Assembly (NCBI GenBank): GCA_963719225.1 | Contig: CAVRAY010000001.1 | Location: forward strand, 3,392,001 to 3,456,000 | Direction: 5' to 3' | DNA from: Thermoanaerobaculia bacterium | Lineage (GTDB): Bacteria; Acidobacteriota; Thermoanaerobaculia; UBA5066 | DNA: 64,000 nt | Part shown: positions 3,882 to 23,775 of the stretch, piece by piece | Layout of the letters: each line of letters starts with the position of its first letter | Position numbering within the stretch: the first letter of the stretch is position 1 | Notes under the pieces: generated by a model | Seen by the model: the letters and a program-made list of their open reading frames with translations, nothing else | Database searches by the model: none | What the model was told of the DNA's origin: nothing | Translations under genes and position numbers: made by a program

Positions 3882-6631
3882 CAGAAATCGATCCGCGCGG
3901 CGAGCTGCAGCTGCCGGGCCTGGTAGAGGTCGTTCGTCGAGGGACGCGGCGCGCCGAAGTCGGCCGCGCTCACGATGTTGCTGTAGCTGTCGGGATCGTA
4001 GTTCTTCCGGTTCGTCACGTTGAAGCACTCGGCGATCAGCTCGAGGCCGACAGGGCCCAGGACGAAGCGCTTCGCGAGTCGCAGGTCCCATCGGAAATAG
4101 CTCGCCGAGAGCTCGGAGTTGCGGCCGAAGCCCGCCGGGCGGTCCTGGCCGAACGGGGGCGCGTCGTCGAGGTTCGCGTCGAAGCCGAGGAGGCGGTTGT
4201 ACGCCCGGCCGGAGCCCACGGTCACGATCGTGCCGAGCGTGAACGCAAAGGGCGTCTTCGAAAGGAGGTCGTAGGAGCCGTTCGCGACGAGGCGATGGCG
4301 CTGGTCGTTGCGCGCGGGTCCACGGTCCTGCCCGAAGGGATCGGACGAGCGCGCATCGCTGACGTTGACCGCGAAGAACTCGGCTTCGTTCGTCGCGCGC
4401 GACCACGTGTACGACAGCTGAGCCTGCCAGTCGTCCGAATAGGCCTTCCTGACGGTCGCGAGCAGGCCGTAGTACGTCGAGTTTCCGTCCGAGTGGACGC
4501 GGCGCACCGATCCGAGCTGCGGGATGGGCCGCGGCGAATTCGGGTTCGACGGATCCGCACGCAGGTTCTCGCGCACCTCGCCCAGCTCGTGCCGGCCGAG
4601 GATGTAGACGCCGTCGGCGGACACCGCCCAGCCGTGCCCGACCGCCTGCGAGAGACCGAGGCTGTACATGAGCGTATACGGCGTCTGCATGTCGGGGTCG
4701 TTCGCGCGTACTTCCGGCGCGACGCCGATCGCCGGGAGCTTCGTGATGTCGGGCGCCGTCACGCCGTTGCACGCCCCCGCGACGGCGAAGCACGGGTACG
4801 CCTTGATCGTGAAATTCTGCCCGTTGAAGATGTCCTCGTTCAGGCTGAGGTTGTTGAAGATCTCGAAGTAGAACATGCCGGCGCCGCCGCGGACGACCGT
4901 CGTCCCGCGCCCGGTCGGATCCCACGCGAATCCCAGGCGCGGCGCGACGTTGTTCCTGTCCTCCGACGTCGGGGTCCTCAGCACCGGGTTCCCCGCAGCG
5001 TCCTTCAACGGAAAGACGAAGTCCGAGTTCAGAGCGCCGTCCTGGAGGTCGTAGCGCACGCCGAAGTTCAGCGTCAGGCCCTGCGCGATGCGCCACTCGT
5101 CCTGGACGAATCCGCTCCAGAAGTTGATCTGATTCAGGGTGGAGGGGTCTCCTCCACCCTTGATGTAGAGCCGCGCCGTCTTGTCGTCGCCGAGGTATGT
5201 GAACTGGCCCGCGACGAAGAGGTTGAACGTCACGTCTCCCTGCCAGCGCGAGAAGCCGCCGCCGAGCTTCAGGAAATGGTTGCCCGCGGTCAGCGCGAAC
5301 GTGTCGTCGAGCCCGTACCGCTGCTCCTTGCCTCTCTGCGGGAACCGGGGGTTGCCGCCCGCGCTGTACGTCGCGTGCGCCTGGCCGACGTCCGACGAGT
5401 TCGGCGGCGAATCCTGGTCGAAGATGAGCGCGGTCAGCCGTGCGTCGTTGTACGACTTCGCCGAGGGCGACCACTGGTGGGCGAGGATCCAGCCCTGGCT
5501 CTTCGACGCCTGCGCGTAGCCGTACGACGCCGCGAGGCTGCCGCCCACGTTCAGGTTCGTCTGGTCGCGGTCGTCGTAGCGATACGAGAGCGTCAGGTGG
5601 TGCCGGGGAGTCGCGGCGACGTCGACCTTGGCGAAGGCAAGCTTGCGGTCGGTCTCCTGCGGGACGCTGCCGGAGAGGTCGGGGCGGACGGGAATCGAGA
5701 CGACGACCTTGGGATTCGCGTCCAGCTTGTCGAACGAGCCGAAGAAGAACGCCTGGTCCCTGAGGAGCGGACCGCCGAGCGTCGCCCCCCAGTTCTGCCG
5801 CCGGTAGTCGTTGGGCTGATTCGAGAAGAACGGCTCGGCCGTCAGGGAGTCGTTCCGGAGGTAGTAATAGGCCGTCCCGTGAAAGGCGTTCGTGCCCGAC
5901 TTCGTGACGACGTTCACGACGACGGAGTTCGAACGCCCGTACTCGGCGGAGAAATTGTTCGTGACGACCTGGAACTCCTGCACCGTGTCCTGGCTGACAT
6001 TGGCCTGCTGCCCGCCGACGATGAAGTTGTTGTTGTCGGCGCCGTCGAGCGAGACGTACGTCCATCGCGCTTCCTGGGCGCCGCCGGCGACGACGCCGGT
6101 GAACGCCACGTCGCGGCCGGGAGTCGTGCCCGGCGCGAGGAGCGCGAGCTCGAGGTAGTTGCGCGTCGCGAGCGGCAGCGACTTGACCTGCTGGGGCGTG
6201 ACGATCGAGGCGACCTGCGAGGACGTCGGATCGATGAGCTCGACCGTGCTCGAGACCTGGACCTCCGCCGCTGCCGCGGCGCGCATCCGGATCGGGAGCA
6301 CCGCCTCCTGCCCCACGGCGAGGCGCAGCCCCCCCGAGCGAAAGGCGCTGAAGCCCGCGAGCTCCGCGGTGACCGCGTACGTCCCCGGCCTGAGGAGGGC
6401 AATCCGAAAGTCCCCCGCGCTTCCGGTGACGGCGCGGCCCGTGATGCCGCGCTCCTCGTCGCGCGCGGTGACGGCGACACCGGGGAGCGGCGCGCCGTCC
6501 TGGTCCACGACGACCGTTCCCGAGAGAGTGGCCGTGTCGGCGGCAGAGGCGGCCCAGGACCACGCGATGAGCGCGACGAGGGCGAGGACGAGAGCCGGAA
6601 AAGGCTTCGTCGGGTGTCCCGGAATCCTCAT
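3881..6631 (-). CDS. TonB-dependent outer-membrane receptor (Oar-like, N-terminal carboxypeptidase-regulatory domain)
   Basis: Signal peptide MRIPGHP...AASA after a GGAAGGAG RBS; FSAEYGRS...VVTKSGTN plug motif, APRLGFAWD, C-terminal RIDF. Confidence 0.92.
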   Translation of the reverse strand: MRIPGHPTKPFPALVLALVALIAWSWAASAADTATLSGTVVVDQDGAPLPGVAVTARDEERGITGRAVTGSAGDFRIALLRPGTYAVTAELAGFSAFRSGGLRLAVGQEAVLPIRMRAAAAAEVQVSSTVELIDPTSSQVASIVTPQQVKSLPLATRNYLELALLAPGTTPGRDVAFTGVVAGGAQEARWTYVSLDGADNNNFIVGGQQANVSQDTVQEFQVVTNNFSAEYGRSNSVVVNVVTKSGTNAFHGTAYYYLRNDSLTAEPFFSNQPNDYRRQNWGATLGGPLLRDQAFFFGSFDKLDANPKVVVSIPVRPDLSGSVPQETDRKLAFAKVDVAATPRHHLTLSYRYDDRDQTNLNVGGSLAASYGYAQASKSQGWILAHQWSPSAKSYNDARLTALIFDQDSPPNSSDVGQAHATYSAGGNPRFPQRGKEQRYGLDDTFALTAGNHFLKLGGGFSRWQGDVTFNLFVAGQFTYLGDDKTARLYIKGGGDPSTLNQINFWSGFVQDEWRIAQGLTLNFGVRYDLQDGALNSDFVFPLKDAAGNPVLRTPTSEDRNNVAPRLGFAWDPTGRGTTVVRGGAGMFYFEIFNNLSLNEDIFNGQNFTIKAYPCFAVAGACNGVTAPDITKLPAIGVAPEVRANDPDMQTPYTLMYSLGLSQAVGHGWAVSADGVYILGRHELGEVRENLRADPSNPNSPRPIPQLGSVRRVHSDGNSTYYGLLATVRKAYSDDWQAQLSYTWSRATNEAEFFAVNVSDARSSDPFGQDRGPARNDQRHRLVANGSYDLLSKTPFAFTLGTIVTVGSGRAYNRLLGFDANLDDAPPFGQDRPAGFGRNSELSASYFRWDLRLAKRFVLGPVGLELIAECFNVTNRKNYDPDSYSNIVSAADFGAPRPSTNDLYQARQLQLAARIDF

Positions 6632-6662
6632 GTCGTCTCCTTCCACCGAACGCGCGGGTTCT

Positions 6663-8654
6663 CTAGCCCGCCGCCGGCTTGCGGCTCCGAATCTCCTCCA
6701 GACGTCGAAGCAGCCGCTCCGCTTCGGTCCTGTTCCCTCTCGCACGCTCGACGCGCGCGAGGTTCTCGATGGTCTGGGCGCGGTCGGGATCGGCGACGAG
6801 GGCCTCGTGCAGGCGAAGGGCCGCCGCTTCGAAGTCGCGCCCCTCGGCCGCGACCGCCGCGAGACCTGAGAGGCCGTCCACGCTGCGTCCGTCGAGGGCC
6901 ACGACGCGTTGGAACGCCTCCCGCGCCCGCTCCAGCCGGCCGAGCGCGAGCGATTCCTGCCCGAGGTTGATCCACGCATCCTGGAAGTCGGGCTTCAACC
7001 GGACGGCCTCCTCGTGAGCGCGGGCCGCATCGGTCTCGCGCCCGAGGAGGTGCCAGGCGATGCCGAGACCGAACCAGTCCTCGGCCAGCGGCGGAAATCG
7101 ACGAAGGATCTCCTGATAGGCGGCCGCGGACTCCCTCGCGCGGCGGCTCCGCCTGAGGACGAGCGCGAGCTCGCGGAAGAGAGCGGGATCCGACCGCACG
7201 ACGGCGGGGTCGAGCGCGGAAAGGAGCGCGGCGGCCTCGGCGCTCTTCCCGAGCTGGCGCGCGATGATCGCGTCCTCGATCGACGGCCATTCCCCGATGC
7301 GGTCCTTCGGATCGACACGCCTGGCGTCGATGCGGTCGAGATCGGAGCCGGCTCCCTGGGGCGTCACGTAGCCGAGCGAAGCGAGCCGACGCACGGTCTC
7401 CTCGTCCGCAGCCGCGGCCGGTCTCAGCCGTGGCGCCGGCTTCCCGACGATTGCGCCGAGGCGGCGCGCGAGATCGCGCGCGTCCTCCCCGTCGGCGTGA
7501 AACACGTTCGCGCGCTCGAGAGGATCGGCCGTGAGGTCGTAGAGCTCCTTGCGCGGCGCGTCGACGAACTTGAACGATGCGCTGCGCACCGCCTTGAGCG
7601 GAGACCAGCCGAGCAGGGCCGCCGGATAAACGCTCTCCGCGTAGACGACGCGGCTTGGAGGCGCGGTCCCGGCGAGGGCGGAAAAGAGCGACACACCGTC
7701 GCCGTCGCGGTCCGCCGGAAGACGCGCCGCTTCGCGCAGGGTGGGAGCGAGGTCGACGAGGGAGACGGGCGTCGCGACGCGGGTACCGGCCACGCCGGAC
7801 GGCGCGACGACGACGAGCGGAACGTGGAGCGTCGCGTCGTAAAGGAAGACGCCGTGCGTCTTCTCGCCGTGCTCGCCCAGAGATTCACCGTGATCGCCGG
7901 CGACCGCGACGAGAGTCTTCGCGAGGAGGCGGCGTGACTCGAGGTGAGCGATCAGCCGCCCGAGCGCCGCATCGGCCGCCGCGACCTCGCCGTCGTAGGG
8001 AGAGGAGAACCGGTCCCGGAACGCGGGCGGCGGTACGTAGGGGGCATGCGGGTCGTAGAGGTGTACCCACAGGAAGAAGCGTCCCTCGCCGTGGGCGTTC
8101 AGCCACGCGATCGCGCGATCAACGACCTCCTCGCCTCCCCTTTCGGCGCGCCACGAAGCGGCCTCGAGCCCGGCATTCGCGGCGAAGCTCTCGTCGTAAG
8201 CCTCGAACCCGCGGGCGAGCCCGACCTCGGACCGGAGCACGAGCGACCCGATCACGGCCGCGGTCTCGAAGCCCGCTTCGCGGAACGCACTCGCGAGGAG
8301 CGGGACGTCGGCGGCGACGCGGTCCGTCCCGTTCACGCGCACGCCATGGCGAAACGGCAGGCGGCCGGAGAAGAGAGACACGTGGGCCGGGAGCGTGAGA
8401 GGCGCCGGCGAGAACGCGCTGGAGAAGACCGCGCCGCGTGAGGCGAGGCGGTCCAGATGAGGCGTCAGGTTGGGCGGTCCGCCGAGCGCGCCCACACGGT
8501 CCGCGCGGAGCGTGTCGATCGTGACGACGAGAAAATTCTGGGCGCGCGGTTGAGCCGGGGCCGTTCGAACGCAGCCCGCGGTGGCCAGCGTGAACAGACC
8601 TCCGGCGGCGTACACCAAAAAGGCGTCGCCGAGACGTCGGCCTTGTTCTCCCAC
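6663..8654 (-). CDS. Sulfatase-like hydrolase/transferase with C-terminal TPR repeats
   Basis: TIDTLRAD, PLTLPAH, HLYDPHAPY and GDHGESLGEHGE motifs; TPR helices in the last ~200 aa. Confidence 0.88.
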   Translation of the reverse strand: MGEQGRRLGDAFLVYAAGGLFTLATAGCVRTAPAQPRAQNFLVVTIDTLRADRVGALGGPPNLTPHLDRLASRGAVFSSAFSPAPLTLPAHVSLFSGRLPFRHGVRVNGTDRVAADVPLLASAFREAGFETAAVIGSLVLRSEVGLARGFEAYDESFAANAGLEAASWRAERGGEEVVDRAIAWLNAHGEGRFFLWVHLYDPHAPYVPPPAFRDRFSSPYDGEVAAADAALGRLIAHLESRRLLAKTLVAVAGDHGESLGEHGEKTHGVFLYDATLHVPLVVVAPSGVAGTRVATPVSLVDLAPTLREAARLPADRDGDGVSLFSALAGTAPPSRVVYAESVYPAALLGWSPLKAVRSASFKFVDAPRKELYDLTADPLERANVFHADGEDARDLARRLGAIVGKPAPRLRPAAAADEETVRRLASLGYVTPQGAGSDLDRIDARRVDPKDRIGEWPSIEDAIIARQLGKSAEAAALLSALDPAVVRSDPALFRELALVLRRSRRARESAAAYQEILRRFPPLAEDWFGLGIAWHLLGRETDAARAHEEAVRLKPDFQDAWINLGQESLALGRLERAREAFQRVVALDGRSVDGLSGLAAVAAEGRDFEAAALRLHEALVADPDRAQTIENLARVERARGNRTEAERLLRRLEEIRSRKPAAG

Positions 8655-8756
8655 GGGATTCCTGTTGTGAGCAGGATAGGCGTATCGAATTCGGAGTCAA
8701 GCCGGGAGGGCCCCGGCGCGGCACGCGGACGGCGCCGCGCCTAAACTCGATGGACC

Positions 8757-11700
8757 TTGAAGAGGCATCTCCTCCAGGCGCTGGCGTACCTGCCGCAGCC
8801 GTTGCGCCGCCGTTCGTACGTCGCGAACCTGGGCTTCGATCCGACCGAGGTCTCGCGCCTCAACTTCAAGCTGGCGGAGACGCTCGACGAACGCATCCAG
8901 AGCTTCCGCGTCCTGCACGACATGTACGTGCGGCGCGGGCTCATCGATCCGACGCCTACGGGCCTCAGGTTCACCGTCTTCTCCGTGCTGCCGACGACCG
9001 CGATCTTCGTGGGAATCCGCGATGGCCTGGTCGTGAGCACGATGTCGCTGATCGAGGACTCTCCGCTCGGCGTCCCCATGGAAAAGCTCTACCGCCAGGA
9101 GATCGGGCGGCTGCGCCTCGAGCGCCGCCGCTTCGCCGAGGTGAGCGCCCTCGCCGTCCAGACGGAGGCACGCGGCAAGGGCCTCGCGCTCATGATGTAC
9201 AACCTGATGTTCCGGTGGGCATTCTTCTACCGGGGCGTCGACGACCTCGTCATCGCCGTGCATCCGAAGGCGGAAGGTTTCTACCGGGACGTTCTTCTCT
9301 TCGACCGGTTCGGAGACGTCCGTGCCTACGAATCCCTCAAGGACGCGCCGGCCGTCGCGCTGAAGCTGGAGCTGCAGACGATCGTGCGGCGCTATCGCGC
9401 GCTGTACGACCGTCGGAGGCGATCCGGCGAGAACGAGCCGGTTCAGAACCTCTACCACTTCTTCTGCGAGGAACAGTTCGCGAACTTCTCGATGCCCACG
9501 CTCCGCGCGGACACGTCGCGCCGCGTGCCGCCGCCCGCCTGGAGCCACGAGGATGTCAGCAGCCTCTTCGAGGAGCACGGGTTCGACATCTCGTCTCTGA
9601 CGTCCGAGGAGCGGCGTTTCTTCATTCTCGAGTACCCGAACCTGGACTGGTCGATTCCGCGCGGAAGAGGCTTCCGGCGGAGCGCGACGGGCCTGAGGGA
9701 AGGCGGGCGCACCGGCAGCCCCGTCGCGGACGCTCTCCTCACGGCCGCGGCGCGCGCTCCCTCCCACGACAACACGCAGCCCTGGCGCTTCACGGCGGAC
9801 ACGAAAACCGGCCGCATCGCCTTCCACGTGGACGAGGGCCGCGATCCTTCGCCGCTCAACGCGGGGCAGCGGCTGTCGCGACTGGCCGTCGGCTGCGCGA
9901 TCGAGAACTTCCGCCGCACGGCCCTGGCGAACGGCTGGAGCCTCGAGGTGGAAGACCCTCCCCCCAACGCGCTCGCGATGTTCCGCGTGACGGACGAGGG
10001 CCACGCTCCGCCGCGCGCCGACGGTCCGATCTTCGCTCGGGTCACGAACCGGATGGTCTACGGCTCTCGCCCCGTTCCCGCGGCGGCGCTGGAGCGTCTC
10101 GCGTCGAAGACTCCCGATCTGGACGGCGTCAAGACACACTGGATCCTCGCGCCTCATCGCGTCGAGGCGCTCGCCGACCTCGTCGGCCGGGCCGAGCGGA
10201 TCGTGTTCGCCCACGGCGCTCTTCGGCGGGCGCAGCACGCCCGCGTGCGTTTCGACCGCAAGCGCGGGGACGCGGTTTCCGAAGGTCTCTCGGTCGCCGC
10301 GCTCGAGCTCTCCCCGACGCGCGAACAGATCCTCCGGCGCGCGGCGTGGCTGCCGGACTGGGCCGTGAAGGCGCTCGGCATTCCCCTCCTGGCCGCCTCG
10401 GCCGCCGCGGATCTCGTGCGGAGCTCTTCGGGTCTCTGTCTGGTCGTGGCGCCCGACGCGAGCCCGGCGTCGGACCTCGCGGCCGGGCGCGCGGCGCAAC
10501 GCGCGTGGCTGTCGATGACCGAGGAGGGACTCGCGGTGCATCCCATGCACGCGCTCGTCGGGCTCGACACGATCCTCGAGAACGGCGCCCCGAAGCTCGT
10601 GGCGTCGCTCTCGAGCAGGAAAGTGAACGCGCTGAAACGCGAGCTGCGCTCGCGCGCGCCGGAGCTCGGATCGGGGAGCCCGGCGTTTCTCATGCGGTTC
10701 GGCAATGCGCCCCCGCCGGCGGGCCGGAGCGGACGGCAGCCGCTCGAGGCCGTGACGCGGCAGGCGCCTCTGGCCCCCGGGGCCAAGCCGACGTCGTCGC
10801 CCGCGGCGCCGGCGCGGAAATCCCGCAGGCCCCGCGTCCTGTTCGTGGGCGAGGCGATCAGCCTCACGCACGCCCGGCGTCCCTTCGCGCTCGCGCGCGG
10901 CATCAACCCGGCCCTGTTCGAGGTCGTGTTCGCGTGCGACCTTCGCTTCCGGCACCTGTTCCCGCAGGTGGATTTCGAGATGGTGCCGCTCCGTTCGATT
11001 CCGTCGGAGCAGTTCCTCGACGCCCTCGCGGCGGGCTCGCCGATCTACGACGTCGGGACGCTCCAGGAATACGTGGAGGAGGACGAGCGTCTCCTGCGCG
11101 AGGTCGCTCCGGACATCGTCGTCGGAGACTTCCGGCTTTCCCTCGGCGTCAGCACGCGCGTCGCCGGAATTCCCTACGTCTGCCTCGCGGAGTCGTGCTG
11201 GAGCCCCTATGCGAAGCTGAAGATTCCCCTCGCGGAGCACCCCGCCGTCAAGCTCGTCGGGCCGCGGGTGGCACAGGCGGTCTTCAAGCCGATCCGGGCG
11301 ATCGCGTTCGCATATCACGCGCTGCCGATGAACGCCGTGCGCCGCGGGCACGGACTCCGGGGGCTCCGCCTCGACCTGCGCCGCGTGTTCACGGACGGGG
11401 ACTACGCGCTCTACGTCGACGTCCCCGAGCTGACGCCCATGTTCGACCTGCCCGCGAATCACCAGTACCTCGGCCCGGTGCTCTGGTCGCCCGAGGTGCC
11501 GCTCCCGCCCTGGTGGTCCGAGCTGCCGCGCCACCTCCCGATCGTCTTCGTCGCGCTCGGGAGCGTCACGAACCCGGCGATCCTGCCGGTCGTCCTCGAG
11601 GCGCTCGAGCCCCTGCCCGTCACGATCGTCGCCGAGACGCGGGGCGCGCGCCTTCCGCACGTGCCGAAGAACGCGTTCGTCGCCGATTTCCTCCCGAGGG

Positions 11701-12041
11701 AACGCATGATCAAGGAGGCCCGCCTCGTCATCTGCAGCGGTTCGACCTCCAGCTCTCATCAGGCGCTCGCCCAGGGCCGCCCGGTGCTCGGGATCGTCAG
11801 CAACATGAACCAGCACCTGAACATGCAGGCCGTCGAGCAGGCGCGGGCGGGCCGCTTCGTCAGGGCCGGAGGGATCGAAAGCCGCGCTCTCGGCGATCTC
11901 GCCCTGTCGTTCCTCGCGCGCCCGGCTTACACGGAAGCGGCCCAGGCTCTCGCGCACACGCTCGCGCGTTACGACGCCGCGACGCGCCTTCAGGACCTCC
12001 TCGCCCGCATTCCCGTCCACACCTCCTCCTCCGTCCTGTGA
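8757..12041 (+). CDS. Tri-domain protein: FeeM/OxzA-like N-acyl amino acid synthase + Acg-type nitroreductase + GT1 (PGL-type) glycosyltransferase
   Basis: N-terminus: HDMYVRRGL, STMSLIEDSPLGVPME, AEVSALAV, IAVHPKAEGFY. Middle: RAPSHDNTQPWRF, RVTNR. C-terminus: VLFVGEAISLTH, DIVVGDFRLSL, DVPEL, YLGPVLWSP. TTG is the first possible start after an in-frame TAA at 8742. Confidence 0.85.
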   Translation: MKRHLLQALAYLPQPLRRRSYVANLGFDPTEVSRLNFKLAETLDERIQSFRVLHDMYVRRGLIDPTPTGLRFTVFSVLPTTAIFVGIRDGLVVSTMSLIEDSPLGVPMEKLYRQEIGRLRLERRRFAEVSALAVQTEARGKGLALMMYNLMFRWAFFYRGVDDLVIAVHPKAEGFYRDVLLFDRFGDVRAYESLKDAPAVALKLELQTIVRRYRALYDRRRRSGENEPVQNLYHFFCEEQFANFSMPTLRADTSRRVPPPAWSHEDVSSLFEEHGFDISSLTSEERRFFILEYPNLDWSIPRGRGFRRSATGLREGGRTGSPVADALLTAAARAPSHDNTQPWRFTADTKTGRIAFHVDEGRDPSPLNAGQRLSRLAVGCAIENFRRTALANGWSLEVEDPPPNALAMFRVTDEGHAPPRADGPIFARVTNRMVYGSRPVPAAALERLASKTPDLDGVKTHWILAPHRVEALADLVGRAERIVFAHGALRRAQHARVRFDRKRGDAVSEGLSVAALELSPTREQILRRAAWLPDWAVKALGIPLLAASAAADLVRSSSGLCLVVAPDASPASDLAAGRAAQRAWLSMTEEGLAVHPMHALVGLDTILENGAPKLVASLSSRKVNALKRELRSRAPELGSGSPAFLMRFGNAPPPAGRSGRQPLEAVTRQAPLAPGAKPTSSPAAPARKSRRPRVLFVGEAISLTHARRPFALARGINPALFEVVFACDLRFRHLFPQVDFEMVPLRSIPSEQFLDALAAGSPIYDVGTLQEYVEEDERLLREVAPDIVVGDFRLSLGVSTRVAGIPYVCLAESCWSPYAKLKIPLAEHPAVKLVGPRVAQAVFKPIRAIAFAYHALPMNAVRRGHGLRGLRLDLRRVFTDGDYALYVDVPELTPMFDLPANHQYLGPVLWSPEVPLPPWWSELPRHLPIVFVALGSVTNPAILPVVLEALEPLPVTIVAETRGARLPHVPKNAFVADFLPRERMIKEARLVICSGSTSSSHQALAQGRPVLGIVSNMNQHLNMQAVEQARAGRFVRAGGIESRALGDLALSFLARPAYTEAAQALAHTLARYDAATRLQDLLARIPVHTSSSVL

Positions 12042-12066
12042 GAAGGACGGATACGATGGAGGAGCC

Positions 12067-12981
12067 GTGACGTCCTCGTTCTCGCCCCGGGAGGCCTTCG
12101 AGCGAAACTTCGGCCTCGTGACGCGCGCCGAGCAGGAGCGCCTCTTCGTTTCGCGCGTCGCGATCGCGGGCTGCGGCGGCGTGGGGGGCCTGCACGCGCA
12201 CGTCCTCGCGCGCCTGGGCGTCGGACGGTTTCGCCTCGCGGACTTCGACACGTTCTCGGTCGTGAACTTCAACCGGCAGATCGGCGCGACGATGGAGACC
12301 GTCGGGAAGAGCAAGGCGGAGGTGACGGCCGCGATGATCCGTTCGATCGATCCCGACGCCACGGTCGAGATCCTCGAGGAGGGCGTCGACGCGGCGAACG
12401 CGGACGCCTTCGTGGCCGGTGCCGATCTCGTCGTCGACGGCGTGGACTTCTTCGCGCTCTCCGGGCGCCGCGCGCTTTTCGCCGCGGCGCGGCGCGCGGG
12501 AGTGCCCGCTCTCACCGCGGGTCCGCTGGGCTTCGGCGCGTCGCTCCACGTCTTCTCTTCCAACGGCATGAGCTTCGACGAGTACTTCGGTCTCGCGGAC
12601 GGACAGGATCCGTTCGAGCAGCTCCTGAACTTCGTCGTCGGGCTCGCGCCGGGGGGACTCCACGTTCCCTACCTGGACTTCTCCACCGTGGATCCCGCGA
12701 CCGGCCGCGGGCCTTCCTCCATCGTGGGGACCCAGCTCGCGTCCTGCCTCGTCGGCGCCGAAGCCGTGCGGGTCCTGCTGGGCCGGGGGCCGTCGCCCGA
12801 CGCCCCGCGGTATTTCCAGTTCGACGCCTACCGCCGCAAGCTCAAGAGCGGGTCCTTGCGCCATGGGAACAAGGGTGTCGTGCAGCGGCTCAAGCGCGCC
12901 GTGCTGAGAAAGCGGGCGCGCGCGCTGGGCTGGGATCGCGCTCTTTTGGAACGGGCGAAGCGGGAGGCGGGGGCTCCATGA
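12067..12981 (+). CDS. ThiF/MoeB-family adenylyltransferase
   Basis: VAIAGCGGVG, DFDTFSVVNFNRQ, GKSKAEV, DLVVDGVDFF; no CxxC zinc sites or rhodanese domain; GGAGGAG RBS. Confidence 0.9.
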   Translation: MTSSFSPREAFERNFGLVTRAEQERLFVSRVAIAGCGGVGGLHAHVLARLGVGRFRLADFDTFSVVNFNRQIGATMETVGKSKAEVTAAMIRSIDPDATVEILEEGVDAANADAFVAGADLVVDGVDFFALSGRRALFAAARRAGVPALTAGPLGFGASLHVFSSNGMSFDEYFGLADGQDPFEQLLNFVVGLAPGGLHVPYLDFSTVDPATGRGPSSIVGTQLASCLVGAEAVRVLLGRGPSPDAPRYFQFDAYRRKLKSGSLRHGNKGVVQRLKRAVLRKRARALGWDRALLERAKREAGAP

Positions 12982-14999
12982 GCGCGGCCGTGCCGCGAAA
13001 GACGCGGGTCCTCTTCTTCGGCGAGGCCGTGACGCTCTCGCACGTCGTGAGGCCCCACGTCCTGGCGGCCTCGCTGGATCCGGCACGCTACGACGTGACG
13101 GTCGCCTGCGATCCGCGGTTCTCGAGCCTCTTCGAGAAGTCGACGTTCGCGCGCCGCGACCTGGAGAGCATCACCTGCGACGAGTTCCTGCACAAGCTCG
13201 AGGTCGGCTCCCCCGTCTACGACGCCCGCACTCTGAGGCGCTATGTGGACGAGGACCTCGCTCTTCTGCGCTCCGTGGAGCCCGACGTCGTCGTCGGCGA
13301 TTTCAGGCTCTCGCTCTCGGCGAGCGCACGGCTCGCCGGCGTCCCGTATCTCGCCGTGACCGACGCGTGCTGGAGCCCGTTCTCCGCCGCCTCCTTCCCG
13401 CTCGCCGAGCACCCGATGACGAAGGTGCTCGGCGTGCGCGCGTCCCAGGCCGTCTTCGCCGCGATCCGGCCGGCCGCGTTCGCGTACCACTGCCTGCCGA
13501 TCAATCGCGTGAGGCGGGACCTGGGTCTGCCGTCCCTCGGGTACGACCTCCGGCGCGTGTACACGAGCGCGGACTGGGTCCTCTACGCCGACATTCCGGA
13601 GCTCGCGCCGCTCCTGAATCTGCCCGCGACGCACCGGTATCTCGGCCCGATCCGGTGGTCGCCCGCCGTTCCGAAGCCGGCGTGGTGGGACGAGGTGCCG
13701 AAGGACAAGCCGGTGGTCTACGTCACGTTCGGGAGCTCCGGCAAGATGAATCTCCTGCCGCGCCTCGTGAAAGCTCTTTCGGAGCTGCCGGTGTCGATCC
13801 TCGTGGCGACGGCGGGCCGGGCGGCGCTCGACCTTCCGCCGCGCGATACGTTCGTCGCCGATTACCTTCCGGGCGACGCGGCCGCCGCGCGCTCGAGCCT
13901 CATGATCTGCAACGGCGGAACGCTCACGGTCCAGCAGGCCCTCTGCGCGAGCGTCCCCGTCCTCGGGATCGCGAACAACATGAATCAGCACATGAACATG
14001 CAGACGATCAGCCGCGCCGGTGCGGGCGAGCTGATGCGCGCCGGAACGTTCGATCCGTTCGAGCTGCGCGCCATGGTGCTCAAGATCCTCTCGTCTCCCG
14101 CCTACGTGCAGGCCGCCTCCGTTCTCGGGCAGACGTATCTCAGGTACGACGCGCCCTCTCGCTTCGGAGAGATCCTGGAGGTCGCCGCGCGCACCGCGGT
14201 GCTCCGGGAGGCCGCGCCCGCGAGGAGGCGCACCTCCTCGGTGCGCATGCTCGAGCCGAAGGTCAAGACGCAGGCCGAGGCGCTCGCGTACGACGAGATG
14301 GAGCACCACTTCGGCGACATCATCTTCCAGGGCCTCGCCGAGTCCGCTCTCAACATGGGGGTCGCCAAAGGGCGCATGCTCGAGGTGGGCACGGGCACCG
14401 GCCGCGTCAGCATCCGCCTCGCGAAGCTGAACCCCGCCCTGTCCATCGACGCCGTCGACCACACGGAAGCGAATTTCCACGTCGCGCGCGGGAACGCACG
14501 GCGGCACGGCCTCGGCGAGCGGCTGCGCTTCTCCCTCGCCCGCCCGAACGCGCTGCCTTTTCCCCCGAACGCCTTCGACCTCGTCATCGCGAGCAACGTC
14601 CTCCTGAACGCGGCCGACCCTCTCGCGTGCCTGAGGGAGATCCGGCGCGTCGCGCGGCCCGAAGGCGCGATCCTCGTGCGCGACGTGAGACGCCTTCCCG
14701 CGGCGATCCTGCCTTTCGTCGTCGCGCTCTACACGCGGGGCTACAGCCCGACGCTCAAGCGCCTCGCCTCGAACTCGTTCCACGCGGCGCTCTCCTACGC
14801 GGAGCTGGAGTCGCTCGTGAAGCAGCTCGAAATGCCGCGCGCGAAGGTCCGGAAGTACTTCGTGTCGCACATCGGGATCGAGGTGCCGGCCGCGAGGTTC
14901 GCGGCGGCGCCCATGAGGCCGCCCGCGGCGGCTTCGCTCTTCAAGCGTCTCGCCAAGTCGCTCTTCGTCTCGCGCGCCTCGGACGCAGGGCTGACGTGA
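12978..14999 (+). CDS. GT1 (PGL/p-HBAD-type) glycosyltransferase fused to class I SAM methyltransferase
   Basis: RVLFFGEAVTLSHVVRP...CNGGTLTVQQAL...NMNQHMNM, followed by LEVGTGTG and LPFPPNAFDLVIAS. Confidence 0.88.
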   Translation: MSAAVPRKTRVLFFGEAVTLSHVVRPHVLAASLDPARYDVTVACDPRFSSLFEKSTFARRDLESITCDEFLHKLEVGSPVYDARTLRRYVDEDLALLRSVEPDVVVGDFRLSLSASARLAGVPYLAVTDACWSPFSAASFPLAEHPMTKVLGVRASQAVFAAIRPAAFAYHCLPINRVRRDLGLPSLGYDLRRVYTSADWVLYADIPELAPLLNLPATHRYLGPIRWSPAVPKPAWWDEVPKDKPVVYVTFGSSGKMNLLPRLVKALSELPVSILVATAGRAALDLPPRDTFVADYLPGDAAAARSSLMICNGGTLTVQQALCASVPVLGIANNMNQHMNMQTISRAGAGELMRAGTFDPFELRAMVLKILSSPAYVQAASVLGQTYLRYDAPSRFGEILEVAARTAVLREAAPARRRTSSVRMLEPKVKTQAEALAYDEMEHHFGDIIFQGLAESALNMGVAKGRMLEVGTGTGRVSIRLAKLNPALSIDAVDHTEANFHVARGNARRHGLGERLRFSLARPNALPFPPNAFDLVIASNVLLNAADPLACLREIRRVARPEGAILVRDVRRLPAAILPFVVALYTRGYSPTLKRLASNSFHAALSYAELESLVKQLEMPRAKVRKYFVSHIGIEVPAARFAAAPMRPPAAASLFKRLAKSLFVSRASDAGLT

Positions 15000-16036
15000 C
15001 GTCTCTCGAGAAGCTCGTCTTCGCCGCCGTCCGGGCGCCCTCCGGCGACAACACGCAGCCCTGGCGCTTCGCGCTCGACGAGAAGACGTCGCGCATCGAG
15101 ATCCATCTCGATGCCGCGCGGGATCCCTCGCCCATGAACGCGGGGCAGCGCATGGCGCGCATCGCGCTCGGCGCCGCGCTCGAGAACCTCCTCTCCGAGG
15201 CCGGGCGGCTCGGCTTCGCGCCCGTCCTCGAGGAAGCGCCGCCGGCGCTCGCGGCCGTTCGCCTGACGGCCGCGGGCCGGGATCCGGACCTCGATGCCGT
15301 CGTCGCGGCGCGGGTCACGAACCGCCGCCCGTTCGACGGCCGCGCCCTGGATCCCCAGGTGAAGGCCGCCCTCGAGCGTGAGTCGTCGCCGCCCCTGGGA
15401 GGCGTGACGACGCACTGGATCGCCGCGAAGGAAAGGCTCCGCTTCCTCGCCTCTCTCGTCGGGCGCGCGGACGCGACGATGTTCTCCGTTCGCGAGATGC
15501 TCATGGCCTTCCTGGGAAAGGTGCGCTTCGACGCGCGGAGAGACGAAGCCGTCGAGGACGGGCTCTCTCCAGCCTCGCTCGAGCTTTCCCCCGCCGACCG
15601 GATCCTGCTCCGGCTGCTTCCCCGCCTTCCGCACGGTCTCCTTCGGGCGCTCGGGATGTTTCACGTCATGGGGGCGCGCTCGAGGGCGCTCGTCGCCGGC
15701 TCCTCGGCTCTCTGCCTCGTCGTCGCGCCCGACGCGGAGCCCCGCACGGACCTCGACGTAGGACGCGCGGCCGAGCGCGCGTGGCTCGCGCTGACGGCGC
15801 ACGGCCTCTCGGCGCAGCCGATGATGTCGCTTCTCGTCCTCGAGAACGCTCTGGATCACGGCGTCCTCGCGCCGGGTCGGACCCGCGACGCGGCCCTGGA
15901 GATACGCGCCGGCCTGCGGAAGCTCGCGCCCGAGGTCGGCGGGGGCCGGCCCGCTTTCCTGATGCGCGTGGGGTACGCGCCGCCGCCGAGGGGCCGCGTC
16001 GGCCGCCTTCCCGTCGGGGACGCTACGCGGCTCTGA
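14996..16036 (+). CDS. Acg/OxzB-like nitroreductase-family (FMN) protein
   Basis: GTG start overlapping the upstream TGA; RAPSGDNTQPWRF, RVTNRR, GRAAERAWL, LMRVGYA; paralog of the middle domain of 8757..12041. Confidence 0.85.
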   Translation: MTSLEKLVFAAVRAPSGDNTQPWRFALDEKTSRIEIHLDAARDPSPMNAGQRMARIALGAALENLLSEAGRLGFAPVLEEAPPALAAVRLTAAGRDPDLDAVVAARVTNRRPFDGRALDPQVKAALERESSPPLGGVTTHWIAAKERLRFLASLVGRADATMFSVREMLMAFLGKVRFDARRDEAVEDGLSPASLELSPADRILLRLLPRLPHGLLRALGMFHVMGARSRALVAGSSALCLVVAPDAEPRTDLDVGRAAERAWLALTAHGLSAQPMMSLLVLENALDHGVLAPGRTRDAALEIRAGLRKLAPEVGGGRPAFLMRVGYAPPPRGRVGRLPVGDATRL

Positions 16037-17207
16037 GAGCCGTCGTGATCTTCAGGCGGGCGGCCCGCAGCGCCGGGAGAAGGCCGCCCGCGACGCCCAT
16101 GACGAGCGAGAAAGCGACTCCGCGCGCGACCAGGGACGGCGTGATCCGGAAGTTGAACAGCACCTCGGCGAACGTGGCGAAGTTCTGCGTCCCCGTCGGC
16201 TCGACGAGGAGGAGCTTGACGAGGAGGGTCGCGGCGAGAGCGCCCAATGCTCCGCCGATCAGCGCGAGGAGCATCGACTCGATCACGAAGGAGAGGACGA
16301 CGGCCGGCCTCGAGTAGCCGAGCGCCCGCAGAGTGGCGATGTCGGTCGTGCGGGCGGCGACCTGCGCGTACATCGTGTTCATCGCGCCGAACGTCGCCCC
16401 GATCGCCATGAGGACGCCGACGAGCCAGGCCAGGAACTCGATGGGCTTCGCGGTCGACTGCTGCTCGGAGAAGTACTGTTCTTCGGTCTTCGCCGCGAGC
16501 TTGATGCGCTGGTCGTCGCGGATCGCCCCCAGCAGGCGGACGCGCTGCCCCGCGTCGCGCGCGCGCAGCCGCACGACGGACAGGATCCCCTCGCGCTGGG
16601 ACTGCTCCTGGAGGTTGTGGAGGTCGGCCCAGACCTCGGAGTCGTACGGCGAGTTCGCGGCCTCGAAGTGCCCGACGATCGTCCAACGCTCGATCCCCGA
16701 GCGGATCTCGCTCCCGACGCCGAGAGAGGCGAAGCGCCGCGCGGTCCTCCGCGAGACGACCACCTCGTTCGTGCCGGGTCGGAACGCACGGCCCTCGACG
16801 ATCTTGAGAGCCGGCCGCAGGAGAAAGGCCTCGGGCTCCACCCCGCGCAGGATGACGTTCGTCTTCCGACCGTCCTTCCGGGCCAGGCTCACGAGCACCA
16901 CGATCTCCGGAGAGACGAGAGGTCCGCCCGACGGCGCACGGTCGATCCCGGGAAGCGTTCGGACCGCCTCGTATTCCTCGCGCGTGATCACGCTCATGAC
17001 GTCCGACTGCGCGCCCACGCGGAGCGCCACGATCGAGCGCGTCGAGACCGGCGCCTCGAAGGTCTTTCTCACGCCCTCGGCGAGCGACATGACGAGGAGG
17101 AAGACCGCGACGACGAGGGAGATGCCGAGGATCGTCATCGAGGTCGAGACACGCCGCACGAAGAGGTTCCGGAAGTTGTACTTGAGCGGGATCGCCGCCT
17201 TCGACAT
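16023..17207 (-). CDS. ABC transporter permease (MacB/FtsX family)
   Basis: [46 protein letters not shown]; start MSKAA at 17207. Confidence 0.9.
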
Positions 17208-18364
17208 CAGGCCACCCGGCGGAGCGCGCCGACGACCGAGATGCGCGAAGAGCGCACCGCGGGCACGAAGCCCGAGAGCGTCCCGATCGCGACGGCGGCG
17301 GCGAACGCCATCCCGACCGTGGACCACGAGACCCGGAAGTTGTACGCGAACGTCGCGGCGGGCGATTGCTTCATTCCCTCCACGAGGGCGTGCGTCAGCG
17401 GAAGGGACAGGAGGACGCCCGCGATTCCCCCCGTCAGGGCGAGGACGAGCGCCTCGGCGAGGATGAGCGCGAGGATGTGGTGCCGCTTGAAGCCGAGGGC
17501 CTTGAGGACGGCGATTTCCGTGACCCTCTCGCGGGCGCTCATCGCCATCGTGTTCGCGACGATGAGGATGATCGTGAAGAGGACCGTCAGCGAGATCGAA
17601 CGCACGAGGAGCTTCACGTTCCCGAGCATCTCGACGAACTGGAGCCGGAACTGCTTCTCGGGCATCGCCTTCACGGGGGCGGAGCTGTTCTCGAAGAGGG
17701 TGTTGATCGCGTCGACGACGACCGGCACGTCGGCGGGCCTCTTGACCCGAAGGACGAAGTTGCCGGTCTGGCCCGCCCGCCCCAGCCACGTGTTCTCGAG
17801 GTACTTGTAGTGATAGAAGATCACGGACTCGTCCGAGCCCTCGTAGACGCCCGCCATCACGAGGTCGAGCGTGATCGGGATGTACGAGCCCTGGATCTGG
17901 ATTCGGTCCCCGAGCTTCCAGTGGAACCGGTCGACGAGCTGCTTGCCCGCGATGAAGGAGTCGCGCCTCGCCTGCCACGTCCGGAGCTGGTCCTTGGGGA
18001 TCCGGTAGTCCTCGTGGATCGTGGCCCACGTGACCGGATCCGCGCCGAGCTGGCCGAAGAAATTCTGCGGTCTTTCGTCGATGTACGTGCCGTTGAACCA
18101 CATCTCCTCGGTCACGGCGACGACGTTCGGGATGCCCTCGATCTTGTGGCGGTAGGCGAGGGGCAGGAATTGCGCGAGGCCGGCCGTGTGCTGGACGAAG
18201 ATCCGCGTCGCGCCCAGCCCCGCGCTGTCCTCCCCCTCGAGCGACGCGAGGAGCGACGAGAGGACGACGATGAGAACCAGGACGAGGACGATCGAGCCGA
18301 TCGTGAGCGCCGCGCGCGTCTTCTTGCGGAAGACGTTGCGCAGGACCAGCGTCAGGAACTTCAT
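17207..18364 (-). CDS. ABC transporter permease (MacB/FtsX family)
   Basis: [31 protein letters not shown]. Confidence 0.9.
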
Positions 18365-19356
18365 CGCTCGCGCCGGATGTTCGTGACGGCGCCGGTCTTC
18401 GGTCCCGCCGGACGCACCTCGGGGCCCGTCGGCTCGCGGAACGGTCCGCTCGCCGGGAGCATCTCGAGCCGTTTCATGAGCTCGACCACGTCGCGCGCAG
18501 AAAGGCCTTCGAACTCCATCGCGACCTCGCGTGCCCAGGCCCGGCGTCGGGAGCGGATCTCTTCCTCTTCGGCCGCGCCCTCGCGTACCACGAAACCCTC
18601 GTTCCAGGGCATCGCCCCCGCCGCTTCGGCCGGTTCGAGCTCGGCCGCTCTCGCCGCCGACGGCACGGGCCTCTCGCGCAGGACTCCCTTGTCGAGGTGG
18701 ACCTGTACGTGGGCGCGCGCGGCGGCCTTCGGGTCGTGCGTCACCATCACGATCGTCTTGCCGAACTCCGTGTTCAACCGGTCCAGGAGCCTGAGGATCT
18801 CGTCGGCGTTCTTCGCGTCGAGGTCTCCCGTGGGCTCGTCGGCCACGAGGATGACGGGGTCGGTCACGATCGCGCGCGCGATCGCGACGCGCTGCTCCTG
18901 CCCGCCGGAAAGCTGTCGCGGATAGTGCGTCATCCGGTCGCCGAGCCCCACGATGGCGAGCGCCGCGCGCGCGTGCTCGCGCCGTTCCTTCTTCGGGAGG
19001 TCCGTCAGGAAGAGCGGAAGCTCGACGTTCTCGAACGCCGTGAGAACCGGGATCAGGTTGTAGAGCTGGAAGATCAGCCCGACGTTCTGCGAGCGCCAGT
19101 CGGCGAGAGCCCCCTCCGAGAGGGACGAGATCTCGTGGCCCGAGATCACGATGCGTCCCGCGGTCGGCCGATCGAGCCCGGCGAGGAGGTTCAACAGAGT
19201 CGTCTTGCCGGAGCCTGACGGGCCCATGAGCGAGATGAACGTTCCGGCCGGGAGCGCGAGGTCGATGCCCGTGAGCACGGGGATCTCGATCGCGTCGCGC
19301 TTGTAGACCTTGGAAACCCCCTCGACCGAGATCAGCGGGGGCGCCGCGGCAGTCAC
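18361..19356 (-). CDS. ABC transporter ATP-binding protein (LolD/MacB-like) with ~100-aa C-terminal extension
   Basis: [29 protein letters not shown]. Confidence 0.92.
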
Positions 19357-19360
19357 GCCG

Positions 19361-20551
19361 TCACTCCCGCACCTTCACCCGCGCGCTCTCGGAAAGCGCC
19401 GGGGTCGACGCCGCCGCGACGAGCTCCTCTCCGCCGCTCAGCCCTTCGAGGATCTCGAGAGCGCCGTCCGACTCGCGGCCGACCTTGACCTGACGGAACG
19501 AGACACGGTCGTCGGCGATGAGCCAGACGCCGGAAATGCCGTCGCGGGTCACGACCGCGCCCTTCGGCACCTCGACGTGCTTCTTCACCTCCCGTCCTTC
19601 CGTCGATTCCGAGGTGAAGCTGACCTTCGCGGAGAGATCCGGCAGGATTCGCGCGTCGGGATCAACGATCGCGACCTTGACCTTCACGGTGCCCTTCTGG
19701 CGGTCGGCCGACGGGACGATCTGCTTGAGGACCCCGTGGTAGATGCGGTCGGGATACGCGTCGAGGACGATCTCGGCGGGCTGCTTTCCGGACAGCCGCG
19801 CGAGATTCGCCTCGTTGACGTCGGTGCCGACGTAGAAACTCGCGAAATCCACGAGGGTGACGATCGCTCCGCCCGCCTGAGAGCCCTGCCCGGGCTGGCC
19901 GTAGGGTGAGACGGCTTCGCCGACGTGCGCGCGCTTGGCGACGACCACTCCGTCGAAAGGCGCCCGGAGCACCGTGTAATCCATCAGCGCCCGGACGTAG
20001 CGTACACGCGCGCGGCGGGAAGCTTCGAGGTTGACGGCGGCGTCGTAGGCCGACTTCGACGCGACGCCATGGCCCCAGAGCGTCTTCTGACGCTCGAGGT
20101 CGGCACGCGCGTTTTCCCATTCCGCCGAAGCGTCGGCGAGCTGCGCGTCGAGGTCGGTGTGGTCGAGACGCGCGAGAACGTCGCCCTTCTTCACGCGGGA
20201 CCCCTCAGTGACCGTCATTTCCGTGATTCGGGAAGTGATCTTCGGCGAGACGTCCGCCCGCGTCTCCGCCTCGACGTAGCCTGTAGCCGACAGTAGCGTC
20301 AGGCGCTGTCCTTCGGTCAGGAGGATCGCCGTCACTTTCTCGACGGGAACCGCGCTGAAGGCCGGTGCGGCGGCACGCGCGGCGGCGGAACGGGACGCGG
20401 GGTTGAGCCACAGGACGGCCGCGCCTGCGAGCACCGCCAGCGCCAGGGCCAGGCCGACCCAGAGCCGGACGCGACTCCGCGACGAGTCCGCCTGCCGGTT
20501 GATCCGCAGGACCGAAAGCTCGGGCGGCTCGGGGGACGGAACCGGACCCAT
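19361..20551 (-). CDS. Efflux periplasmic adaptor subunit (MacA-like MFP)
   Basis: N-terminal TM; [38 protein letters not shown]. Confidence 0.9.
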
Positions 20552-21816: not shown

Positions 21817-21842
21817 CGAAAGAACGAGACAAGGAGACCCGA

Positions 21843-22589: not shown

Positions 22590-22604
22590 GGGATCGGAAG
22601 GCCG

Positions 22605-23765: not shown

Positions 23766-23775
23766 AAGGACTCTG

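Follow-up and report, generated by a model that had tools for sequence, protein, structure and literature searches.

The window analysed here is a 64,000-nucleotide stretch of contig CAVRAY010000001.1 (positions 3,392,001 to 3,456,000) from an uncultured, soil-type Thermoanaerobaculia bacterium of the Acidobacteriota. Four co-directional genes on its plus strand, designated g1 to g4 (8757-16036), probably build a sugar-decorated, methylated N-acyl-dehydrotyrosine or oxazolone lipid, which would be exported by the adjacent MacB-type ATP-binding cassette (ABC) pump (Table 1). The product and every catalytic step are predictions. Open reading frame (ORF) calls together with Pfam and NCBIfam matches placed seven catalytic domains in the four genes: one FeeM-type N-acyl amino acid synthase (NAS), two flavin-dependent oxidases (FDOs) of the nitroreductase superfamily, a ThiF-type enzyme, two family 1 glycosyltransferases (GT1s) and a methyltransferase (MT) using S-adenosylmethionine (SAM). 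A first-pass annotation of this DNA had described four tightly coupled genes with these seven domains; ORFs, coordinates and family matches all agree with that account of the gene content, which overlooked the linked ABC exporter.

The gap of 25 nt between g1 and g2 contains GGAGGAG ahead of g2, and the next two junctions are overlaps of stop and start codons (ATGA for g2/g3, GTGA for g3/g4). The GC content at third codon positions of g1 to g4 (0.89-0.92) is high, as expected of real genes where overall GC is 68%; it resembled that of the other window genes (0.84-0.96) and thus gave no compositional sign of recent transfer. A scan of the plus strand for promoters and terminators found nothing exceeding shuffled expectation. 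In the whole 4.75-Mb genome, the sole FeeM match and the sole two FDO matches are those of this cluster. The domain arrangement is considered to be beyond chance because the same set recurs in distant relatives, partly as gene fusions.

Table 1. Predicted genes and domains of the cluster and of the adjoining exporter (positions are those of the window).
Feature	Position	Residues	Strand	Description
g1	8757-12041	1094 aa	+	TTG start; FeeM / Acg-type FDO / GT1 tri-domain protein
FeeM domain (N-acyltransferase)	8901-9368	g1 49-204	+	PF21926, E 1.1e-42
g1 FDO	9735-10754	g1 327-666	+	Two-lobed Acg-type; NF047509 142 bits
g1 GT1 (GT-B), lineage 'a'	10824-12041	g1 690-1094	+	EryCIII-like_C, residues 959-1068
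g2	12067-12981	304 aa	+	Stand-alone ThiF-type ATP-dependent adenylating/cyclising enzyme
g3	12978-14999	673 aa	+	GT1 lineage 'b' fused to class I SAM methyltransferase
g3 GT1	12996-14192	g3 7-405	+	52% identity to ACC40204
MT SAM-binding core	14370-14702	g3 465-575	+	Methyltransf_31 E 2.5e-20; Ubie_methyltran E 2.6e-12
g4	14996-16036	346 aa	+	Second Acg-type FDO
FtsX/MacB-type permease 1	16023-17210		-	MacB_PCD + FtsX (PF12704 + PF02687)
FtsX-type permease 2	17207-18364		-	Family match; 69-70% identical in L009, L014, L015, L019, L020
ABC ATPase, LolD/MacB/DevA type	18361-19356		-	ABC_tran (PF00005)
HlyD/MacA-type periplasmic adaptor	19361-20551		-	HlyD_D23 (PF16576)

The predicted pathway would begin with the FeeM domain of g1, which would use acyl-acyl carrier protein or acyl-coenzyme A to N-acylate an aromatic L-amino acid, with tyrosine the most likely. 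An FDO (the middle domain of g1, g4 or both) would then use O2 to desaturate the bond between C-alpha and C-beta, as TyzC, OxzB and TrzS do, and the ThiF enzyme g2 would adenylate the carboxylate so that the amide oxygen could close an oxazol-5-one ring (a tyrazolone). One GT would place a sugar, probably derived from a TDP-6-deoxyhexose donor, on the phenol oxygen, and the other would add a second sugar. The MT fused to g3 would O-methylate a sugar hydroxyl, about as probably as it would methylate the ring or the carboxyl group. Finally, removal of the glycolipid from the inner membrane would fall to the ATPase, the HlyD adaptor and both FtsX permeases.

The amino-terminal domain of g1 was predicted to be an N-acyltransferase of the FeeM/OxzA/TyzA fold. 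The Pfam family scored 145.9 bits against a cut-off of 27, the amino-terminal part of NF011425, a FeeM+ThiF+FDO fusion family, scored 165.7 bits, and the solved FeeM structure (PDB 2g0b) was matched with E 4.7e-7. The failure of this domain to align with FeeM, which had been named in advance as one outcome that would overturn the annotation, was therefore not observed. The TTG start of g1 agrees with the conserved amino terminus of the tri-domain alignment (A1). Modelling of the whole of g1 by AlphaFold2 (AF2) from the nine rows of this alignment gave a mean pLDDT of 49.7 and a pTM of 0.34, too poor for use. The linker between the FeeM and FDO domains (window 9369-9734, residues 205-326) has many residues invariant in A1, such as N231, F235, F236, P259, P260 and E284, but was not matched by any family in Pfam; a docking element or a small domain not yet recognised may be present there.

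The stand-alone g2 has the features predicted of a ThiF-like ATP-dependent cyclase with an intact adenylation motif. PF00899 was matched with E 2.9e-42 (144.9 bits) and NF006077 with 347.5 bits, exceeding its cut-off of 266, while the ThiF+FDO model NF011424 gave 285 bits as against 93 bits at most for ThiF/MoeB models. The nearest solved relative was TcdA (E 6.9e-20), which ranked before ThiF and MoeB and which is described in a review as an oxazolone-forming dehydratase making the oxazolone ring of ct6A. The motifs GCGGVGG (GxGGxG), DxD, NRQ, K and DGVD of g2 were invariant in a 20-row ThiF alignment (A4). In the fused ThiF-FDO form represented by TrzA/TrzS, Asp D217 of TrzS is reported to be essential (PMC12856293), and its equivalent in g2 is assigned by motif only.

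The two FDOs of the cluster resemble each other in their family scores. The FDO of g1 covered positions 2-318 of the 319 of NF047509, below the cut-off of 199, and gave 130 bits with the Rv1355c-family model; g4 gave 141.4 bits (same cut-off) and 135.7 bits, respectively, and aligned with the Acg structure 2ymv over residues 4-302 (E 9e-4). Both retained all invariant columns of a 12-row FDO alignment (A3). In the FDO tree, the g1 FDO, g4 and the ThiF-fused FDO formed one clade (97% SH-aLRT) apart from a divergent third FDO-like domain; the branching among the g1 FDO, g4, the ThiF-fused FDO and the amino-terminal domains of FDO-FDO proteins was without resolved order. That third domain, which follows the ThiF-FDO pair in relatives, is very divergent (about 24% identity).

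The orthology of g2 and g4 to a fused ThiF-FDO enzyme was indicated by two relatives' loci, L014 and L042, in which ThiF, FDO and the third FDO-like domain occupy a single open frame (14361-18443 in L014). This frame covered positions 19-673 of the 679 of NF011424 with 514.5 bits, and g2 shared 66% identity with the ThiF part of the L014 fused protein, while g4 had 48% identity with its FDO part. These data directly support the prediction that the frame has the OxzB/TrzS architecture and that g2 and g4 represent the halves of such an enzyme in detached form, separated by the GT-MT gene. The description of the locus as a 'split OxzAB', put forward on first inspection, is thereby borne out, since the relatives' ThiF+FDO frame follows NF011424 end to end.

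The proposed glycosylation is based on the kinship of both GTs to enzymes of the phenolic glycolipid (PGL) and p-hydroxybenzoic acid derivative (p-HBAD) type. In BLASTP comparisons with the Mycobacterium marinum protein ACC40204, the g3 GT was identical at 206 of 399 positions (E 3e-140) and the g1 GT at 189 of 405 (47%, E 3e-118), a full-length relationship that is consistent with GT1 enzymes of the PGL/p-HBAD type. The mates of ACC40204 in its 90% cluster carry the name PGL/p-HBAD biosynthesis rhamnosyltransferase, the Swiss-Prot name of M. tuberculosis Rv2962c, an enzyme reported by Perez et al. 2004 to add the first rhamnose to the phenol. The first-pass proposal of Rv2962c-like phenol GTs is supported by this kinship (52% and 47% to ACC40204), the orthology of ACC40204 to Rv2962c being taken from the names of the cluster mates. 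The two window GTs are 49% identical to each other. Their donor loops read ICSGST in g1-type GTs (window 11721-11738, g1 residues 989-994) and ICNGG(S/T) in g3 (residues about 308-315) and in stand-alone members of the family, a difference that hints at different sugar donors.

The AF2 model of the g3 GT, built from a 58-row alignment, was of high quality (pLDDT 95.4, pTM 0.92) and predicted a GT-B fold with a TDP/UDP-sugar site. Foldseek ranked CalG1 with bound TDP first (E 2.2e-22, TM 0.74-0.80), followed by the elaiophylin GT and OleD; CalG1 is an enzyme that rhamnosylates an aromatic hydroxyl. Outside the window, the genome contains RmlD-like genes (267 and 239 bits) and an RmlC-like gene (65.8 bits, weak).

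A wider survey linked this GT family to the other activities of the cluster. The g3 search retrieved just nine other GT-MT fusions (55-92% identity) and hundreds of stand-alone GT1 proteins of 400-425 aa at about 50% identity, among them proteins of Nitrosococcus, Methylocaldum, M. marinum and Halioglobus, the last named PGL/p-HBAD biosynthesis glycosyltransferase. When 1.84 billion proteins, each representing a 50% cluster, were searched exhaustively with phmmer, 8289 matches were obtained, of which a single one was end-to-end, and the tri-domain protein is accordingly rare. Pfam analysis of 20 long or multi-stretch matches from this search identified FeeM-GT, GT-FeeM (two proteins), ThiF-GT, GT-FDO-GT, GT-FDO-acyltransferase and FAAL-GT fusions. 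The separate architectures in which the family is joined to FeeM, ThiF or FDO number at least four. Other fusions in the survey (proteins P0339, P0442, P0352/P0375 and P0342) were GT2-GT (P0352/P0375), GMC-GT (with the carboxy-terminal piece of a GMC oxidoreductase), HAMP-GT and GT-DUF2141. In a Myxococcales metagenome-assembled genome (MAG), an FDO (33% identity) is followed directly by such a GT (47%). In a 55-row GT tree, both window GTs fell within a 14-row clade (95% SH-aLRT) made up exclusively of fused forms, with the Nitrosococcus and M. marinum proteins just outside it (92%) and the g3 GT grouped with the GT of FAAL-GT-MT proteins. The GT-FeeM, ThiF-GT and GT-FDO groups were placed away from this clade, and the scatter of fusion types over the tree indicates that the link between the GT and FeeM, ThiF or FDO arose, or was kept, several times. 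GTs of three further Acidobacteriota (G419, G334 and G224) were rejected as relatives, being 25-30% identical with no ThiF, FDO or FeeM nearby.

The MT of g3 also matched UbiE/MenG-type family models of Pfam and NCBIfam. Its best solved relatives by sequence were 4pne, 6uv6 (a D-glucose O-methyltransferase), MitM and 3bus, the last of which is RebM. In the ESM Atlas, it matched generic UbiE-like class I methyltransferase clusters alone. Methylation of a sugar hydroxyl by g3 is favoured because of the fusion of the MT to a GT and because of the analogy to PGL, whereas the stieleriacine clusters point to methylation of the ring and to an end product with an open chain. The main alternative keeps the same core pathway, but the MT would methylate the ring of tyrosine, its phenol oxygen or its carboxylate, and an open-chain N-acyl-dehydrotyrosine glycoside would be exported with the oxazolone as a transient activated intermediate. 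It is rather unlikely but has the published chemistry of Stieleria on its side: as described there, NAS, methyltransferase, ThiF and nitroreductase genes accompany ring- or O-methylated open-chain dehydrotyrosines, oxazolones were not observed for these compound families, and the methyltransferase of the S. neptunia cluster groups with UbiE (PMC12479983). UbiE/MenG-type models match the g3 MT as well. In addition, oxazolones are reported to hydrolyse in hours at pH 8 (10.1101/2020.06.11.147165). The position of the MT argues the other way, since it is fused to a GT in g3 and likewise in the nine other GT-MT and in the FAAL-GT-MT proteins. Two sugar O-methyltransferases (6uv6 and 3bus) are among its best solved relatives by sequence, and methylation of the phenol oxygen would block the proposed glycosylation site. 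The PGL module moreover couples such GTs with a rhamnose O-methyltransferase (PMC3594219).

Tyrosine was preferred as the amino acid because the GTs are akin to a phenol-glycolipid enzyme and because the relatives' clusters encode a flavin adenine dinucleotide (FAD) protein of the vanillyl-alcohol oxidase (VAO) type. This FAD protein was close to p-cresol methylhydroxylase and to vanillyl-alcohol and eugenol oxidases (E 9.4e-68), which act on para-substituted phenols. It is unlikely, to a greater degree than the alternative methylation, that the acceptor is something other than a tyrosine phenol, with phenylalanine, tryptophan or an aliphatic amino acid being acylated and the GTs acting on a hydroxyl of the acyl chain or on the ThiF-activated carboxylate to give a sugar ester. 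Homologues of OxzAB and TrzAS are described as using Phe or Trp (PMC10404671, PMC12856293). FeeM-type specificity is not readable from sequence, and an acyl chain of unusual type, such as a hydroxylated one, could come from the FabH and FAAL of the relatives. The 47-52% identity of the GTs to an enzyme annotated as a mycobacterial phenol rhamnosyltransferase speaks against such an acceptor, as do the para-alkylphenol oxidase homologue in the relatives' clusters and the best fold match CalG1, which glycosylates an aromatic hydroxyl.

The recurrence of the gene set was assessed at several levels. A word-indexed search of 5.8 billion proteins with g1 yielded 17 matches, of which eight, all metagenomic, covered 98% or more of g1 with identities of 46-80%. 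No tri-domain protein was found with the A1 profile in 400 other genomes of the phylum (single-domain matches in 4), and no full-length match to g1 in 40 relatives, 24 of them of the same genus. Pattern scans located 4 loci among species genomes and another 10 among metagenomes. L014, L015, L017, L009/L042 (an Acidobacteriota MAG) and L018-L020 carry the tri-domain gene, or else its FeeM-GT form, and the cluster-mates there include the same ABC set (55-70% identity), ThiF (66-67%) and FDO (46-50%), as well as a FAAL-GT(-MT) gene whose GT is 59% identical to the g3 GT, FabH, extra FeeM/GNAT genes and the FAD protein; the core set is about 47% identical to that of the window. The preservation of the set despite changed gene order suggests one functional unit that includes the exporter. 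Co-occurrence in other genomes, on which the first-pass annotation had made its proposal depend, was thus observed in L014, L015, L017, L009/L042 and L018.

It is highly improbable that the genes do not form one pathway, with the GT and MT domains serving an unrelated envelope glycan or detoxification and lying beside an Oxz/Tyz-type set by chance. Inactivation of foreign compounds can be a function of macrolide-GT-type GT1s, and weak NCBIfam matches to macrolide-GT (MGT) models were seen; the cluster is also absent from the 28 same-genus genomes searched, giving no conservation within the genus. Against a chance association, one GT is covalently fused to FeeM and an FDO, and the other is fused to the MT in a gene that stands between those for ThiF and FDO and overlaps each of them at a stop and a start codon. 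The same set moreover recurs at about 47% identity, and fusions of the GT family to FeeM, ThiF or FDO occur in several orders independent of one another.

The relatives' clusters are larger (L014, 1935-3407(-), 13259-14419(+), 457-1512(-) and 8656-9147(-); L017, 4440-5240(+)) and contain, besides two FabH-type β-ketoacyl synthase III genes and a FAAL fused to GT(-MT), genes for a membrane beta-barrel with DUF5777, for a second, divergent FeeM protein and for a GNAT resembling Acetyltransf_5/FeeM. The tri-domain proteins P0001 and P0003 (80% and 72% identical to g1) and the ThiF protein P0026 (72%) each report a longest contig of 127,707 bases, and one metagenomic contig may therefore carry two copies of the system.

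The exporter genes at 16023-20551 converge on the cluster, the stop codons of g4 and permease 1 overlapping by 14 nt, and their own gene ends overlap. They have the gene content of a MacB-type tripartite ABC exporter within one operon. The ATPase scored 225.9 bits with LolD, 200.1 with MacB and 195.1 with DevA models, each under its cut-off, and the adaptor scored 180.9 bits with RND_mfp TIGR01730, over the cut-off of 94.9. Copies of permease 1 (62-67% identical) stand beside the tri-domain gene in L009, L014, L015, L018, L019 and L020, and the ATPase was 55-58% identical to the copies in the relatives' clusters. Like MacAB, LolCDE and DevBCA, the set combines two FtsX-type permeases, a MacB periplasmic domain, a LolD/MacB/DevA-like ATPase and an HlyD adaptor; it differs in passing only the cut-off of the generic adaptor model, and its substrate is putative. 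DevBCA-type exporters transport heterocyst glycolipids, and lipoproteins and macrolides are also known substrates for this type of transporter.

A second MacB-type set (HlyD, ATPase and two FtsX permeases) lies at 20614-24954(+), divergent from the first. At the DNA level, the 28 same-genus genomes contained the second set only, at 79-89% identity, with the exception of G018, which alone also matched the first set whole; the second set is accordingly regarded as core and the first as accessory. In G018 (locus L033, contig C171), the permeases of the first set are 86-88% identical, and a VAO/p-cresol-methylhydroxylase-type FAD protein and a pyridoxal phosphate-dependent decarboxylase of the aromatic amino acid type replace g1 to g4 (2618-7132, 7088-8872(-), 9542-11212(-)). 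In L014 a VAO-type gene follows the ABC set, as in G018, and the exporter may belong to a wider group of phenol-lipid clusters. Another contig of G018 (C182, locus L032, 10367-16380) carries a separate pair of FeeM (32% to g1) and ThiF (39%) genes, with a GH3 glycosidase and an amidohydrolase next in order; no FDO was noted on this contig.

Several points weigh against a glycosylated, methylated and exported oxazolone or dehydrotyrosine lipid as the product of g1 to g4. The pathway is predicted from gene content, and the amino-acid specificity is not readable from sequence. Published NAS+ThiF+nitroreductase clusters are described as yielding open-chain dehydrotyrosines, with methyltransferases acting on the ring (PMC12479983), which makes both the ring-closed end product and the methylation of the sugar uncertain. 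The proposed scheme leaves the retention of a second FDO without a role. With the Acg model (cut-off 199) the two FDOs reach just 142 and 141 bits, about what they score with the Rv1355c family, and these scores do not separate FDO-A, the subfamily that accompanies ThiF, from FDO-B for either. The VAO-type gene of the relatives and of G018 is absent from the window cluster. The putative link from ACC40204 to Rv2962c consists of names given by the source, and a literature search with the locus tags from M. marinum and with the UniProt identifier found nothing. No nucleotide diphosphate-sugar genes were found within the 64-kb window, and the RmlC-like match elsewhere in the genome is weak. Lastly, because G018 carries the ABC set without g1 to g4 beside it, the pump is not exclusive to this cluster.

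Among characterised systems, the closest in outline is TyzABC of M. tuberculosis, in which TyzA, TyzB (ThiF) and TyzC (FDO) make C12:0-tyrazolone (PMC10404671). It shares with the window an N-acyltransferase of FeeM-like fold, a stand-alone ThiF-type cyclase, a stand-alone Acg-like FDO and an adjoining lipid transporter gene, there MmpL9 rather than a MacB-type ABC exporter. In a comparison by description and not by sequence, it differs in having one FDO, an unfused acyltransferase and, in the published account, neither a GT nor a methyltransferase (PMC10404671). A split between ThiF and FDO is therefore not new, since TyzABC is a characterised split form. The oxazolone synthetase of Pseudoalteromonas rubra comprises OxzA, which is the N-acyltransferase, and a fused ThiF-FDO protein, OxzB, and the preprint remarks on glycosyltransferases near oxzB (10.1101/2020.06.11.147165). 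The logic of an N-acyltransferase plus ThiF-FDO is common to OxzAB, TrzAS and the window, and a fusion of just this kind is carried by L014 and L042; in the window it is split, with the GT-MT gene between the halves and a second FDO fused to the acyltransferase.

The cluster also contains the gene content of stieleriacine-type loci, namely NAS, a class I MT, a ThiF-family and a nitroreductase-family gene. The loci for stieleriacine, for thalassotalic acid and for kyonggic acid are described as operon-like arrangements of NAS, ThiF-family and nitroreductase-family genes with N-acyl 2,3-dehydrotyrosine products, and in Stieleria class I methyltransferases are also present, one of them UbiE-like (PMC12479983). 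They differ, as far as the source describes them, in having no GTs, in separate enzymes and in methylation of the tyrosine ring, the MTs having been compared by description (PMC12479983).

For the sugar part, the nearest counterpart is the PGL module of M. tuberculosis, in which Rv2962c, Rv2958c, Rv2957 and the methyltransferase Rv2959c are described as building a glycan whose first, 2-O-methylated rhamnose is attached to the phenol ring (PMC3594219); the mycobacterial glycosylation genes have been called horizontally acquired (PMC3087520). The resemblance lies in two paralogous GT1s and a SAM methyltransferase that put an O-methylated rhamnose on a para-substituted phenol (PMC3594219, PMC3087520). 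The difference lies in the aglycone, which is phenolphthiocerol or p-hydroxybenzoate instead of an N-acyl amino acid, and in the enzymes being stand-alone. Hyellamide from Hyella patelloides, a phenol-O-xylosylated enamide derived from N-myristoyl-tyrosine, demonstrates that N-acyl-tyrosine-derived lipids with a sugar on the phenol oxygen occur in nature (PMC11959600). Its pathway is described as using unrelated enzymes, namely an SGNH acyltransferase, an oxidative decarboxylase of FeeG/CndG type that yields an enamide in place of an oxazolone, a different GT and an acetyltransferase, with no ThiF or FDO mentioned (PMC11959600).

Upstream of g1 and divergent from it are genes for a sulfatase-tetratricopeptide repeat (TPR) protein, a TonB-like outer-membrane protein and a major facilitator superfamily transporter, and the remaining window genes are housekeeping. 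Among these, the FtsH and ArsA proteins have cluster-mates (90% identity or more) that bear the names Thermoanaerobaculia or Acidobacteriota bacterium. The longest frames of the outer-membrane ORF (3881-6979(-)) and the sulfatase-TPR ORF (6663-8654(-)) overlap by about 300 bases, and the true start of the outer-membrane gene probably lies further in. A sulfatase is also found upstream of the tri-domain gene in L013, a fragment with 93% identity.

The core pathway, the split between ThiF and FDO, and methylation are already known. What is new, on the gene content predicted here, is the covalent integration of two PGL-type GTs, the duplicated FDO and the conserved MacB-type exporter. The literature search found no characterised cluster joining NAS, ThiF and FDO with glycosyltransferases, although the supplementary figures of the Oxz, Tyz and Trz papers may show some, and no glycosylated oxazolone has been characterised. 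The novelty claimed in the first-pass annotation consequently survives for the composition as a whole and is reduced in its parts, the split form (TyzABC), the methyltransferase (stieleriacines) and a phenol-sugared acyl-tyrosine (hyellamide) having already been published.

Acyl-oxazolones and N-acyl-dehydrotyrosines are bacterial lipids of recent discovery and as yet unsettled function, and the Acidobacteriota are a phylum without characterised compounds of this class and with almost no characterised natural products. If the prediction is true, a glycosylated, methylated and exporter-tied version would suggest a glycolipid that is secreted or sits at the surface, and not a signal that diffuses. 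The fused acyltransferase-oxidase-GT and GT-MT chains would be compact biocatalysts, and a pathway of four genes is easy to test. The relationship of the GTs to those of mycobacterial phenolic glycolipids would also offer a way of tracing where that enzyme family came from and what governs its choice of acceptor. It is a tentative suggestion, and one that may well prove wrong, that this GT1 clade marks widespread, unrecognised phenolic glycolipids built on N-acyl-dehydrotyrosine or oxazolone cores, having been repeatedly fused to FeeM, ThiF and FDO, and that the GTs of mycobacterial PGL were recruited from it.

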